A DNA stretch of 64,000 nt from an uncultured delta proteobacterium (GTDB taxonomy: Bacteria > Myxococcota_A > Polyangia > Palsa-1104). Under the pieces are notes generated by a model. The model had not been told where the DNA came from, did not search any database, and worked only from the letters and a program-made list of their open reading frames with translations. Position 1 is the stretch's first letter. Every line of letters starts with the position of its first letter. The stretch covers positions 1 to 64,000 of the forward strand of contig CAWAWS010000037.1 in the NCBI GenBank assembly GCA_963785725.1, written 5' to 3'. Shown piece after piece: positions 32,242 through 40,057 of the stretch. A program made the translations under genes and the position numbers.

Positions 32242-33015
32242 TTGTCTACCGTCGCTGTCGTGCAAGCTCGGCTGGGATCTTCGCGGTTGCCGGGCAAAGT
32301 GCTGTTGCCGCTCGCCGGCAAGCCGATGTTGTGGCACATCGTCGACCGCCTGCGGCGCGCGCCCGGCGTCGCCACCGTCGGCGTCGCCACGTCGGATCTG
32401 CCCGGCGACGAGCCGCTGCGCCAATTCTGCCGCGACGAAGGCATCCCCGTCTTCGCCGGTGACGAACGCGACGTGCTCGACCGCTTCTACCGCGCCGCGC
32501 GCCAATTCGGCGGCGATCCCGTCATCCGCGTCACCGCCGACTGCCCGTTCGTCGATCCCGAGATCATCGGCCAGCTCGTCGCGCAGTATCACGCCGGCGC
32601 CTACGATCACTTCGCCGTCGCCACCGGCTCGGTCGCGCACGGCTTCCAAGGCGCGCGCTTTCCCGACGGGCTCGACGCCGAATGCATCCGCCTCGACGCG
32701 CTCGAACGGTCGTGGCGCGAAGCGACCGAGCCGAGCGACCGCGAGCACGTGACGCCGTATCTTTATCGCGTCGCCGGCCGCTTCCGCAACGGCATGCTGC
32801 CCGCCGCCGAAGATCACGGCAGCCTGCGCTGGACCGTCGATCACGCCGCCGACTTCGCGCTCGTCGAGCGCGTCTACGCCGCCTTGTGGCGCGCCGACCG
32901 CCCGTTCTCGATGCCCGACATCCTCGACTTCTTCGCCGCGCATCCCGAGCTGCGCGCGCTCAATGACGCCTTCGTCGGTCAAGAAGGCTATCAGCAAGTG
33001 TGGAACCCAAAATGA
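32242..33015 (+). CDS. spsF: SpsF-like cytidylyltransferase
   Basis: QARLGSSRLPGKV, DVLDRF, RVTADCP, REHVTPY, WTVD. Confidence 0.88.
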   Translation: MSTVAVVQARLGSSRLPGKVLLPLAGKPMLWHIVDRLRRAPGVATVGVATSDLPGDEPLRQFCRDEGIPVFAGDERDVLDRFYRAARQFGGDPVIRVTADCPFVDPEIIGQLVAQYHAGAYDHFAVATGSVAHGFQGARFPDGLDAECIRLDALERSWREATEPSDREHVTPYLYRVAGRFRNGMLPAAEDHGSLRWTVDHAADFALVERVYAALWRADRPFSMPDILDFFAAHPELRALNDAFVGQEGYQQVWNPK

Positions 33016-34328
33016 GCCACAAAGGTCCCGAGCTTTATCGTCGCGCCAAGCAGCGCATTCCCGGCGGCACGCAGCTCTTGTCGAAGCGGCCGGAGATGTT
33101 CCTGCCCGAGCGCTGGCCGTCGTATTATCAGAGCGCGCGCGGCATCGAGATCGTCGACCTCGACGGCGACGTCTATCTCGACTTCAGCATCATGGCCATC
33201 GGCGCCTGCATCTTGGGCTACGCCGATCCCGACGTCGACGGCGCGGTCAAGCAGTGCATCGACAACGGCGTGGCGTCGACGCTGAACGCGCCCGAAGAGG
33301 TCGAGCTCGCCGATCTCTTGTGCGAGCTGCATCCGTGGGCCGACATGGTCCGTTACGCGCGCTCGGGCGGCGAGGCGCTGTCCGTCGCCGTGCGCATCGC
33401 GCGGGCGCACAAACGGCGCGGCAAAGTCGCGTTCTCGGGCTATCACGGCTGGACCGATTGGTACTTGGCGGCCAACCTAGGCGAATCGACGGCGCTCGAT
33501 GGTCACCTCTTGCCGGGACTGGATCCGTCGGGTGTGCCGCGGGAGCTGCGCGGCTCGGCGCTGCCGTTTCACTACAACAACCTCGACGAGCTGAAGAAGA
33601 TCGTCGACGCTCACAAAGGCGACTTGGCGGCGATCGTCATGGAGCCGCGGCGCGACGAGCCGCCGGCGCCGGGCTTCCTCGAGGCGGTGCGGCAGATCGC
33701 CAACGACATCGGCGCCGTCCTCATCTTCGACGAAGTGACGACCGGCTTTCGCCAGTGCTTGGGCGGCATCCACTTGACGATGGGCGTCGAGCCCGACCTC
33801 GCCGTCTTCGCCAAGTCGATCTCGAACGGCTACGCCATGTCGGCCGTCATCGGGCGCGCCGCGGTCATGGAGGCCGCGCAGTCGACGTTCATCTCGAGCA
33901 CCAACTGGACCGAGCGCATCGGCCCGACGGCGGCCTTGGCGACGATCAAGAAGCTCCGTCGCGACAACGTCATCGCGCACAACATCGACATCGGGCAGCG
34001 CGTCATCGCCGGCTGGAAGCGGCTCGGCGAGGAGGCGGGGCTGCACCTGCACACGTCGAACCTGCCGACGCTGGCGCACTTCAAGATCGAGCACAAAGAA
34101 GAGCTGGCGCTGACGACGCTGTTCACGCAGGAGATGCTGGCGCGCGGCTTTCTGGCGTGGACGCAGTTCAAAGCGTCGCTGGCGCACAAGCCCGAGCACG
34201 TCGAGGATTACTTGGCGGCGGCGCGCGAGGTGTTCGCGATCATGAAGGACGCGCTGGCCAAAGGCGACCTGCATAGCCGGCTGCAAGGTCCGCTGCAGCG
34301 GCGCGGCTTCTATCGTCTGACGTCGTGA
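33012..34328 (+). CDS. Class III PLP aminotransferase (glutamate-1-semialdehyde aminomutase-like)
   Basis: IPGGTQLLSKR, GYHGW, IFDEVTTGFR, FAKSISNG. Confidence 0.9.
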   Translation: MSHKGPELYRRAKQRIPGGTQLLSKRPEMFLPERWPSYYQSARGIEIVDLDGDVYLDFSIMAIGACILGYADPDVDGAVKQCIDNGVASTLNAPEEVELADLLCELHPWADMVRYARSGGEALSVAVRIARAHKRRGKVAFSGYHGWTDWYLAANLGESTALDGHLLPGLDPSGVPRELRGSALPFHYNNLDELKKIVDAHKGDLAAIVMEPRRDEPPAPGFLEAVRQIANDIGAVLIFDEVTTGFRQCLGGIHLTMGVEPDLAVFAKSISNGYAMSAVIGRAAVMEAAQSTFISSTNWTERIGPTAALATIKKLRRDNVIAHNIDIGQRVIAGWKRLGEEAGLHLHTSNLPTLAHFKIEHKEELALTTLFTQEMLARGFLAWTQFKASLAHKPEHVEDYLAAAREVFAIMKDALAKGDLHSRLQGPLQRRGFYRLTS

Positions 34329-37923: not shown

Positions 37924-39063
37924 CTAGCTCCGTCCTAACGCCGCGTGCACCGCGACGATGACGCGCTCGACATCGGCGTCGCTCATGGCCGGGTAGAGCG
38001 GCAAGCTCACGAGCTCGTCCGCTGCGCGCGCCGCCACCGGCGTTTCCACCGGCTTGTGGCCGAGCGCGCGATAGAGCGGCATATCGTTGACGGCCACATA
38101 ATGCACTTGCGGCAAAATACCTTGCTCCTGCAGAGCGGCGAAGAAGCGCGCCCGCTCGTTGACGCGCACGGCAAACAGGTGCCAAGTCGGCTCGGCGCCC
38201 GGCTGCTGCGATTGTAGCCGCAAGCGCGGCTCCTGCGCGAAGGCCGCGCGATAACGTTCGACGATGGCGCGACGACGCGCCGAAAAGCGGTCCAGTTTGC
38301 GCAGCTGGCTGCGGCCGAGCGCGCATTGCAGCGCCGTCAGCCGATAGTTGAACCCGAGCGACTGCACTTCGTAATACCACGGCCCGTCGTTGCGAACGAG
38401 ACGGGCGGCGTCGCGCACCATGCCATGGTTACGGAAGTCGCGCGCCCGCTCGGCCAAGGTCGCGTCGTCGGTGAGGACGGCGCCGCCTTCGCCGGTCGTG
38501 ATCGTCTTGACCGGGTGGAACGAGAACGTCGTCAGATGCGCCAGCGAGCCGACCGGGCGACCGAAGAGCTTGCCGCCGATCGAATGCGAGGCGTCGGCGA
38601 TGACGGTCAAACCCTTGGCGCGCGCCAACGCCATGAGCTCGTCGTGTGCCGCCGGATGGCCCGCGAAATCCACCGGCACCAACGCTTTGGTGCGCGGCGT
38701 GATCGCCTTGGCGGCTTCGGTCGGATCGAGGCACAGCGTGCCTTCGTCGACGTCGGCGAAGACGGGCTTGCCGCCGAGCGCCAGCACCATGTTGGCGGTG
38801 GCGCTGAACGTCAGCGGCGACGTCACGACCTCGTCGCCGGCGCCGACGCCGGCCGCCGCGTACGCGCAATGCAGCGCGGCCGTGCCGTTGGCGACGACGA
38901 CGGCGTGGCGCGCGCCGCACGCCGCCGCCAGCTCGGCCTCGAACGCGTCCACTTCCGGCCCGGTCGTCAAATAGTCGCTGCGCAGGACGCGCACGACCTC
39001 GGCGATGTCGTCGTCCTCGACGAGCTGCCGGCCGTACGGAAGCGGGTGCGCCGGCGTCGTCAT
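37924..39063 (-). CDS. pseC: UDP-4-amino-4,6-dideoxy-AltNAc transaminase
   Basis: LPYGRQ, LTTGP, FSFHPVKTITTGEGG, GFNYR, QVHY. Confidence 0.92.
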   Translation of the reverse strand: MTTPAHPLPYGRQLVEDDDIAEVVRVLRSDYLTTGPEVDAFEAELAAACGARHAVVVANGTAALHCAYAAAGVGAGDEVVTSPLTFSATANMVLALGGKPVFADVDEGTLCLDPTEAAKAITPRTKALVPVDFAGHPAAHDELMALARAKGLTVIADASHSIGGKLFGRPVGSLAHLTTFSFHPVKTITTGEGGAVLTDDATLAERARDFRNHGMVRDAARLVRNDGPWYYEVQSLGFNYRLTALQCALGRSQLRKLDRFSARRRAIVERYRAAFAQEPRLRLQSQQPGAEPTWHLFAVRVNERARFFAALQEQGILPQVHYVAVNDMPLYRALGHKPVETPVAARAADELVSLPLYPAMSDADVERVIVAVHAALGRS

Positions 39064-40057
39064 TCGAGGCCGTCGGGCTTGAGGTTACGCACCATCTCGG
39101 TCAAGTCGGTGCGCGAGAGCCAGCGATCGTTGGTGTCGGAGCCGTAGCGGAAGTCGTCGGCGCACGGCTTGCCGCTGGCGTAGGCGTCGGTCGGGAACCA
39201 CGAGAACGCCGGCTTGATGACGTAGCGATCGTCGAGCTCGACGGTGGAGCGCGCGTCGTCCTCGGGCACCATGACCTCGTGCAGCTTCTCGCCCGGGCGG
39301 ATGCCGACGACCTCGGTCTTGCACTCGGGCGCGACGGCGGCGGCCAGGTCCATGATGTTCATCGACGGGATCTTCGGGACGAAGATCTCGCCGCCCGACA
39401 TGCGCTCGATGCGTCGATGACGAAGTCGACGCCTTGCTGCGAGCGTGATCCAGAAGCGCGTCATGCGCGGGTCGGTGATCGGCAGGACGCCGGTCTTCTT
39501 CTTGGCCAGGAAGAACGGGATGACGCGAGCCGCGGCTGCCGACGACGTTGCCGTAGCGGACGACGGCGAAGCGGGTCTCGCGCTGGCCGACGTAGGCGTT
39601 GCCGGCGACGAACAGCTTGTCCGCGCACAGCTTCGTCGCGCCGTACAAGTTGATCGGGTTGGCCGCCTTGTCCGTCGAGAGCGCCACGACGCGCTTGACG
39701 CCGCGATCGATCGCAGGCGTTGATGACGTTCTCGGCGCCGAGGATGTTGGTCTTGACCGCCTCGAACGGGTTGTACTCGGCACGCCGGCACCTGCTTCAG
39801 CGCCGCCGCGTGGACGACGACGTCGATGCCGTCGAGCGCGCGCTGCAGGCGCTGGCTGATCGCGCACGTCGCCGATGAAGTAGCGCAGGTTCTCGCCGTC
39901 GAAGCTTCTGCTGCATCTCGTACTGCTTGAGCTCGTCGCGGCTGTAGACGACGATACGACGCAGCTTGAGCCGCTCCATCGCCGTCTTGACGAAGAGCTT
40001 GCCGAACGACCCGGTTCCGCCGGTGATGAGGAGCGCTTTCCCTTCGAGAGAGTACAT
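39060..40057 (-). CDS. pseB: UDP-GlcNAc 4,6-dehydratase (inverting), about seven frameshifts
   Basis: [57 protein letters not shown] spread across three frames. Confidence 0.9.

Follow-up and report, generated by a model that had tools for sequence, protein, structure and literature searches.

What sugar would be made by a pseudaminic acid cluster whose biosynthetic genes are joined by a further cytidylyltransferase, aminotransferase and oxidoreductase? The question is raised by positions 32242-40057 of the window, a stretch of 64,000 nucleotides (contig CAWAWS010000037.1, positions 1 to 64,000, assembly GCA_963785725.1) from an uncultured delta proteobacterium. Here, a trio of genes encoding an SpsF-like cytidylyltransferase, a class III pyridoxal phosphate (PLP) aminotransferase and an aldo-keto reductase (AKR) is located immediately upstream of pseH and pseI, which belong to the pathway for pseudaminic acid (Pse). 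Sugars of this kind are found on flagella, capsules and O-antigens and influence phage and immune recognition. Sequence comparison indicated that the combination of an oxidoreductase (AKR or Gfo/Idh/MocA), a cytidylyltransferase and an aminotransferase is a conserved module tied to Pse synthesis across Bacteria, Archaea and viral contigs. Such an arrangement of genes has been published before and is very widespread, and the window represents one more instance of a biochemically uncharacterised module. That the trio exchanges a hydroxyl of the Pse skeleton for an amine is a serious possibility, which we would place a little short of an even chance. The genes of the cluster are as follows.

32242..33015, + strand: SpsF-like cytidylyltransferase (P0001), predicted cytidine monophosphate (CMP)-nonulosonate synthetase; PF02348, 97.9 bits (cut-off 22.6)
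33012..34328, + strand: class III PLP aminotransferase (P0002) with a HemL-like fold; PF00202, 136.2 bits (cut-off 30.5)
34325..35272, + strand: AKR (P0003), predicted redox step of the module; PF00248, 125.2 bits (cut-off 24)
35299..35862, + strand: pseH, N-acetyltransferase; TIGR03585, 130.4 bits (cut-off 93.1)
35859..36923, + strand: pseI, pseudaminic acid synthase; TIGR03586, 486 bits (cut-off 340.25), with NeuB at 291.8 and SAF at 45 bits
36963..37922, - strand: pseG, uridine diphosphate (UDP)-sugar hydrolase; TIGR03590, 180.7 bits (cut-off 153.55)
37924..39063, - strand: pseC, DegT-type 4-aminotransferase; TIGR03588, 425.9 bits (cut-off 423.5), and PF01041, 389.2 bits
39090..40057, - strand: pseB, inverting 4,6-dehydratase; TIGR03589 in pieces, eight frame segments

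An earlier note on this DNA had placed the trio and the pse genes at 32242-40057 and had described the trio as overlap-coupled and preceding pseH-pseI; all named genes were indeed recovered there as profile matches, and the overlaps were read directly in the sequence. The three trio genes are translationally coupled, with start and stop codons sharing four bases at ATGA 33012-33015 (SpsF-like/aminotransferase) and GTGA 34325-34328 (aminotransferase/AKR). A further overlap of this type (ATGA, 35859) connects pseH with pseI, and pseH possesses an alternative in-frame ATG start at 35284. PseC, PseH, PseG and PseI each exceeded the corresponding NCBI equivalog cut-off. The same note had also counted pseB among the genes present; this holds with the reservation that pseB is frame-broken in this assembly. 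The G+C content of the region is 0.68-0.71.

Compared with a Chloroflexi PseB, pseB was shown to contain seven frame changes at ~39410-39905, resulting in eight segments in three frames, each of which is 52-77% identical to that protein. The TIGR03589 match was accordingly broken into three parts (174.5, 115 and 88 bits), for a model whose cut-off is 407.75. Contigs from four public metagenome runs (X1, X3, X7 and X8), representing ~95% alike relatives of another strain, carried one base more at 39412 and one fewer at 39441, 39525, 39714, 39779, 39853 and 39901/39902, and these sites coincided with all seven breaks. Given this coincidence, and given that hemL of the same genome is likewise split over three frames, the breaks are probably consensus errors of the assembly and the Pse pathway is probably whole. 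The alternative that pseB represents an old pseudogene was set aside, considering the identity retained by the segments and the agreement of all breaks with the public contigs. Other apparent pseudogenes of the source genome may also be artefacts.

The absence of a canonical pseF, likewise claimed by the earlier note, was confirmed, as the PseF model TIGR03584 was matched neither by the SpsF-like protein (E <= 0.001) nor by any other protein of the 88% complete source genome (8.9 Mb, 47 contigs). The SpsF-like gene (32242-33015) is the sole CTP_transf_3 gene of that genome. Its product matched PDB entry 6oew ('Cytidylyltransferase') at E 8.2e-27, its relatives carry the JGI name SpsF, and the residues of its N-terminal nucleotide-binding motif (Q8, A9, R10, S13, R15, L16, G18 and K19) were invariant in 8/8 aligned relatives. 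In Bacillus subtilis, spsF is reported to be required for the transfer of legionaminic acid and to be dispensable for its synthesis (PMC7439481). These genetic data, together with the finding that the genome encodes no second member of this family, suggest a CMP-nonulosonate synthetase, which is predicted to stand in for PseF. No kdsB-type synthetase of CMP-3-deoxy-D-manno-octulosonic acid (Kdo) turned up in this 88% complete genome with its single CTP_transf_3 gene; the organism may lack Kdo-containing lipopolysaccharide, or kdsB may be unassembled.

The link between the trio and Pse synthesis was examined in a locus survey with one genome per species, for which 468 aminotransferase relatives were considered and the best 80 loci were kept, using tblastn queries from the window and from several of the loci. 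An SpsF-like gene was located within 3 kb of the aminotransferase gene in 19 of the 80 loci, and each of these 19 module loci was shown to encode an oxidoreductase within 6 kb (AKR in 11, Gfo/Idh/MocA in 9). Pse pathway genes were frequently found among the same 19 loci (PseG in 12, a NeuB-family gene in 16, PseB in 12 and PseC in 14), with GNAT detected in six using an insensitive query; across the full set, a NeuB-family gene was present in 44/80 loci. Pfam annotation of 98 open reading frames (ORFs) from eight loci revealed a recurring order, pseB-pseC-[AKR or Gfo/Idh/MocA]-SpsF-aminotransferase-pseG-(GNAT)-pseI, in Ignavibacteriales, Bipolaricaulota, Pseudomonadota, Chloroflexi and other taxa. 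AKR and Gfo/Idh/MocA exchange places within this order (L008, L012 and L017 versus L040, L052 and L067), and in one locus (L063) the module adjoins a Maf-type flagellin glycosyltransferase.

Gene fusions pointed in the same direction. Among 120 listed relatives of the SpsF-like protein longer than 450 residues, 109 were cytidylyltransferase-aminotransferase fusions, nine of which additionally contained Gfo/Idh/MocA, two AKR and three GNAT. The remaining fusion types in this list joined the cytidylyltransferase to NeuB (four), to AKR (one) or to Gfo/Idh/MocA (one). Where all three activities are fused, the domains follow the order oxidoreductase-cytidylyltransferase-aminotransferase. The long aminotransferase relatives included fusions with NeuB and SAF, with Gfo/Idh/MocA alone, with DegT plus cytidylyltransferase and with GNAT plus cytidylyltransferase. 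The 109/120 listed fusions and the oxidoreductase in all 19 module loci suggest that the trio acts as one functional unit.

The two oxidoreductase fusions without an aminotransferase domain (AKR-cytidylyltransferase and Gfo/Idh/MocA-cytidylyltransferase; P0361 and P0307) bring in a reading in which the sugar is tailored by redox chemistry and never aminated: AKR and the SpsF-like protein would represent a split EpaA, yielding a C8 or C4 epimer and its CMP activation, while the aminotransferase would serve another step, such as making or recycling an amino donor or modifying a different compound. EpaA, which consists of an N-terminal CTP_transf_3 and a C-terminal AKR domain, is reported to convert Pse5Ac7Ac (5,7-di-N-acetylpseudaminic acid) together with the short-chain dehydrogenase/reductase (SDR) EpaB into 8-epi-Pse5Ac7Ac, as established by nuclear magnetic resonance for Acinetobacter baumannii prophages (PMC12053666), and, in a Vibrio Pse cluster, a dehydrogenase gene is described downstream of an SpsF-AKR fusion (PMC7371886). 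Epimerisation, however, requires two redox steps, and no SDR or second oxidoreductase was found between 31.4 and 42.2 kb of the window, the nearest adh_short_C2 gene being located at 11343-12248. A side role would, moreover, leave unexplained why the aminotransferase is the commonest fusion partner of the cytidylyltransferase among the listed relatives, and we therefore regard this reading as unlikely.

The module is not confined to cellular chromosomes of a single lineage. On a plasmid of Halorussus aquaticus (L097), Gfo/Idh/MocA is followed by a 'glycosyltransferase family protein' of the SpsF type and the aminotransferase, in the vicinity of NeuB, DegT, SDR and GNAT genes. Plasmid pSMR1-1 of the diatom-associated roseobacter Pseudosulfitobacter pseudonitzschiae (L098) carries, inside a Wzy-type polysaccharide cluster, the order pseB-pseC-AKR-GNAT-hypothetical-class III aminotransferase-pseG-pseI-polymerase, in which the 677-residue aminotransferase gene is long enough for a cytidylyltransferase fusion. 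Module proteins bear only generic names in the RefSeq/NCBI annotation. Within the lineage of the source genome itself, one of the 30 relatives searched carried the aminotransferase gene (72% identity), and it was missing from all four genomes of the same genus, a rarity which fits a variable surface-glycan island. The nearest module relatives (L002, L003, L004, L006, L068 and L069) encode a short NeuB-family protein (~289 residues, no SAF); its gene lies between pseC and the SpsF-like gene, and L004 and L006 show no SpsF-like gene there.

Viral contigs yielded 32 SpsF-like loci, in 14 of which an aminotransferase gene was adjoining. Homologues of pseB, pseC, pseG and pseI accompanied the module in L118 and L122, both situated on one IMG/VR contig of 129,770 bases (GC 0.27-0.28), and in L101, L102, L104 and L109-L111. 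Viruses or prophages may thus tailor nonulosonates of the host or virion, as the Epa prophages do, with host contamination of the contigs as a possible alternative. An EpaA-like cytidylyltransferase-AKR fusion with an SDR was absent from the 32 viral loci, and the phage collection gave only an unrelated AKR of chromosomal type (an Acinetobacter record).

The earlier note had proposed a possibly new amino-nonulosonate; the gene arrangement itself is not new. Besides being spread over many phyla, it is published for the polar flagellin glycosylation islands of Aeromonas, group I, subgroups IA-IE (Forn-Cuni et al. 2021, PMC7874193). Subgroup IB, with pseB-pseC-AKR-pseF-class III aminotransferase-pseG-pseH-pseI, matches the gene content of the window, and its order recurs in L040, L052, L023 and L067. 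In the sections of that publication drawn on here, the island genes are only catalogued. The window differs from Aeromonas in its order SpsF-aminotransferase-AKR-pseH-pseI with divergent pseG-pseC-pseB; it lies in a surface-glycan region and has no flagellin or Maf gene near the trio.

The identity of the aminotransferase was assessed against HemL, as the earlier note had named grouping with true HemL as a reason to abandon its proposal. The protein scored 187.8 bits with the HemL model TIGR00713, far under the cut-off of 527.3, and with NF004856, its best match among curated models, it likewise stayed under cut-off; a better hemL is encoded on another contig of the same genome (G000:C24:145863-147127; 310.6, 180.7 and 91.7 bits in three frames). 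An assignment as HemL was consequently rejected. Among solved structures, HemL was nonetheless the best match (E 1.6e-43), followed among the aldehyde/ketone aminotransferases by the gentamicin C-6' aminotransferase GenB (3.8e-32), and the fold and PLP lysine are common to HemL, GenB, FumI, GntE and the window protein. This lysine (K268) aligns with that of the solved HemL structures and was kept in 56/56 relatives. In HemL, the glutamate of the 'QFEA' motif excludes alpha-carboxylates. At this position, the window protein has Lys, and the 56 relatives have Lys (36), Arg (8), Tyr (9) or Asn (3), i.e. a basic residue in 44/56. If this role of the HemL glutamate is right, such a substitution would be suited to a donor bearing a carboxylate, or to a sugar acid, an observation that may serve as a lead only.

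For the AKR, residues D60, Y65, K87 and H130, which we take from motifs to be the catalytic Asp-Tyr-Lys-His tetrad, were kept in 18 of 19 module-linked AKRs, and the sugar-oxidising AKRs known as L-galactose dehydrogenases are among its solved relatives. Judged by the conserved PLP lysine (56/56), tetrad (18/19) and nucleotide motif (8/8), all parts of the module look active. This bears on the simplest reading of the locus, namely that only ordinary Pse5Ac7Ac is made, with the SpsF-like protein replacing PseF and the aminotransferase and AKR leaving the sugar unchanged. All five core Pse enzymes are there and would be sufficient for Pse5Ac7Ac, and a modified product is demonstrated for no module member; yet the trio is translationally coupled here and fused elsewhere, its catalytic residues are intact and the relatives are highly conserved. 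In the corresponding search, at least 8000 near-length aminotransferase candidates were scored, all of them significant, and the 120 listed were 67-97% identical. We consider it very improbable that the sugar remains unmodified.

An oxidoreductase paired with an aminotransferase represents the usual logic by which a sugar hydroxyl is replaced by an amine (WbpB/WbpE, NtdC/NtdA and KdnB/KdnA), and the presence of one of each in the module fits such an exchange. In the proposed pathway, PseB, PseC, PseH, PseG and PseI would make Pse5Ac7Ac, and AKR would oxidise its C8 hydroxyl with NAD(P)+ to a methyl ketone. The PLP enzyme would then transaminate the C8 ketone, giving 8-amino-8-deoxy-Pse, and the SpsF-like enzyme with cytidine triphosphate (CTP) would form the CMP-sugar, to be used by a glycosyltransferase encoded in the surface-glycan region around the cluster; activation may come before or after tailoring. 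Outside the ring and the anomeric centre, Pse5Ac7Ac should offer free hydroxyls at C4 and C8 only. A ketone at C8 would be a methyl ketone, the usual substrate of the class, and one at C4, being placed beta to C2, would make an activated sugar prone to losing CMP. Amination at C3 of the hexose was dropped as a candidate, since by our reasoning that oxygen closes the nonulosonate ring.

A role for AKR at C8 is also suggested by comparison with other nonulosonates. In acinetaminic acid synthesis, the swap between the SDRs AciB and AciE alters the C8 configuration (PMC5595891), and EpaB is reported to be 41.5% identical to AciE (PMC12053666). As the SDR would seem to be the reductase that sets the C8 configuration in these cases (AciB/AciE and EpaB), the AKR domain would be left as the C8 dehydrogenase, and an aminotransferase replacing the SDR would, on that scheme, give an 8-amino sugar. 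We put forward amination at C8 specifically as a tentative assignment, with the chances lying clearly against it, and the same degree of doubt attaches to the predicted end product, a CMP-activated 8-amino-8-deoxy (5,7,8-triamino) pseudaminic acid. The earlier note had outlined the same sequence of oxidation by AKR (at C8 or C4), amination by the aminotransferase and activation by SpsF. Of its argument, the tie of the unit to Pse and the distinction from HemL stand, and EpaA/EpaB supply a precedent for C8 redox chemistry (PMC12053666), whereas the analogy to KdnA does not hold, as described below.

The direction of the reaction may also be questioned. AKRs normally reduce, and the aminotransferase could in principle remove the free N7 amine before acetylation, after which the oxidoreductase would reduce the ketone to give a 7-hydroxy, fusaminic-acid-like nonulosonate. 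Such a route would agree with the scarcity of detected GNAT genes noted above (with its insensitive query) and with Aeromonas subgroups IA, IC and ID, which are shown with the module and without pseH inside the island (PMC7874193). In the window, by contrast, pseH is a good match and translationally coupled to pseI, so N7 would be acetylated and no free amine would be available; GNAT-cytidylyltransferase-aminotransferase fusions exist as well. Amination of hexose C4 by PseC followed by deamination would also be wasteful, given that direct reduction of the PseB product would serve. Deamination at N7 is, accordingly, a distinctly remote prospect.

Some experimental indication comes from Aeromonas hydrophila AH-1, a member of subgroup IA in which AKR and the aminotransferase are the only extras (PMC7874193 supplementary Table 1). 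Its flagellin is reported to carry a Pse-like glycan of 403 Da instead of 316 Da, an excess of 87 Da over Pse5Ac7Ac, and some of its fragments deviate by one mass unit from those of acetylated Pse (PMC4691044). An odd nominal mass of 403 would imply an odd number of nitrogens. The AH-1 glycan lends circumstantial support to amination of Pse.

The additional 87 Da would also agree with a reading in which the nine-carbon skeleton is left as it is and the pair acts on a substituent, for example by oxidising and then aminating an N-acyl group such as 3-hydroxybutanoyl or by contributing an amino-alcohol or amino-acid-like group attached to Pse. Related clusters encode acyl-type functions, comprising a thiolase and SDR (L008), a FabH-like protein (L067), an ATP-grasp ligase and methyltransferase (L002) and formyltransferases (L040 and L056), indicating that diverse N-acyl groups are common near the module. 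The profile matches of the window cluster, however, included no unusual acyl-donor gene next to pseH, and the module remains constant while the acyl genes vary, which points to a shared substrate. Tailoring of a substituent is thus also judged unlikely.

Several observations weigh against amination of the Pse skeleton. AKRs usually act as reductases in cells, and if the AKR reduces, as is possible in EpaA, the ketone would have to come from elsewhere. The family substrate may also differ from Pse itself, seeing that in 20/80 loci only the aminotransferase was matched by the queries and that 112 of 120 listed long aminotransferase relatives (P0125-P0243), mostly labelled Planctomycetes, were fusions with Amidohydro_2, all outside recognisable Pse clusters. 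One of these fusions (L039:6891-9305) is located near a PIG-L deacetylase in a context unlike a Pse cluster, representing a second, unexplained family context. Fusions with NeuB, GNAT and DegT show pathway membership and not the order of steps. For Aeromonas, the 'class III aminotransferase' is likened to the window family by identical gene order alone; the formula ranked first by the authors for the AH-1 glycan, in the part of their report considered here, has no nitrogen (PMC4691044), and exchange of OH for NH2 alone amounts to -1 Da, leaving the mass of 403 Da unexplained. The literature searched, with subscription papers outside its scope, contained neither a functional experiment with a protein of the aminotransferase family nor an 8-amino or triamino nonulosonate, and with a module this common such a sugar might already have been met in structural studies.

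The surroundings of the cluster are consistent with a surface-glycan region. The gene just 5' of the trio is the following.

31404..32207, + strand: family 2 glycosyltransferase (GT2), AglJ/PpgS-like polyprenyl-phosphate type; PF00535, 110.3 bits

Its top NCBIfam matches, AglJ and PpgS, were both well under cut-off. Upstream, three long ORFs on the + strand (26284-31393; 537, 616 and 555 residues) with an AT skew of -0.16 to -0.33 had no Pfam or NCBIfam match and probably encode polymerase- or flippase-like membrane components of the glycan machinery. A block of lower GC content (17436-25360; 0.61-0.62 at 18-24 kb versus 0.67-0.71 around it) encodes a PMT_2-type glycosyltransferase, methyltransferases, a methyltransferase-GT2 fusion and a GDP-mannose 4,6-dehydratase (TIGR01472, 533 bits), and may have entered the glycan island by a separate acquisition. 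Further downstream, a 569-residue ORF (54058-55767, + strand) contains a weak SecY-like stretch (PF00344, 52.3 bits; TIGR00967, 44.3 versus 253.6; SecY2 models, ~31-33 bits) and may represent a divergent translocase-like membrane protein tied to glycan or glycoprotein export. An unusual pairing was observed at 55997-58291 (- strand), where a 764-residue protein combines GT2 with a DVU_1553/PaaK-type AMP-dependent ligase (162 bits, cut-off 300).

Should a third amino group be installed, a whole class of surface sugars would have been overlooked, and mass-based typing would confuse the triamino sugar with acetamidino derivatives of the same formula. The module is very common and, as likened by gene order, is present in pathogens of fish and humans such as A. 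hydrophila.

Among known systems, KdnB/KdnA of Shewanella had been invoked by the earlier note, which took KdnA for a class III aminotransferase. The solved KdnA (PDB 5k8b) instead matched the DegT-type PseC of the window (E 1.2e-44), placing it in the DegT family, and was absent from the best 60 of 88 solved matches of the class III aminotransferase. In Shewanella, the dehydrogenase makes an 8-oxo ulosonic acid and the aminotransferase gives 8-amino-Kdo; to our knowledge, KdnB is not an AKR. The likeness is thereby limited to the logic of dehydrogenase plus aminotransferase, and the substrates differ, being an eight-carbon primary alcohol in that case and, for Pse, a secondary alcohol next to a methyl group. 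SpsF of the B. subtilis spore crust belongs to the same Pfam family as the window protein, its sugar being legionaminic acid, and we know of no class III aminotransferase or AKR in the sps operon. In the O-antigen locus of Legionella pneumophila serogroup 6/12, PseG, a glutamate-1-semialdehyde aminomutase-like gene and a cytidylyltransferase are described side by side (PMC3694923).

Likened by domain content, the closest tested system to the window trio is EpaA/EpaB. Both combine CTP_transf_3 and AKR with the Pse pathway, and EpaA/EpaB tailor a hydroxyl of the finished nonulosonate, after the core pathway. In EpaA, the cytidylyltransferase and AKR are fused and the partner is an SDR, whereas the window has them as separate, coupled genes beside pseH-pseI, with a PLP aminotransferase as the third member and no SDR by it. 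With an aminotransferase in place of the SDR partner, the outcome should differ from that of EpaA/EpaB. The comparison leads to a scheme in which a C8 dehydrogenase would be shared and the second enzyme would decide between epimer and amine.

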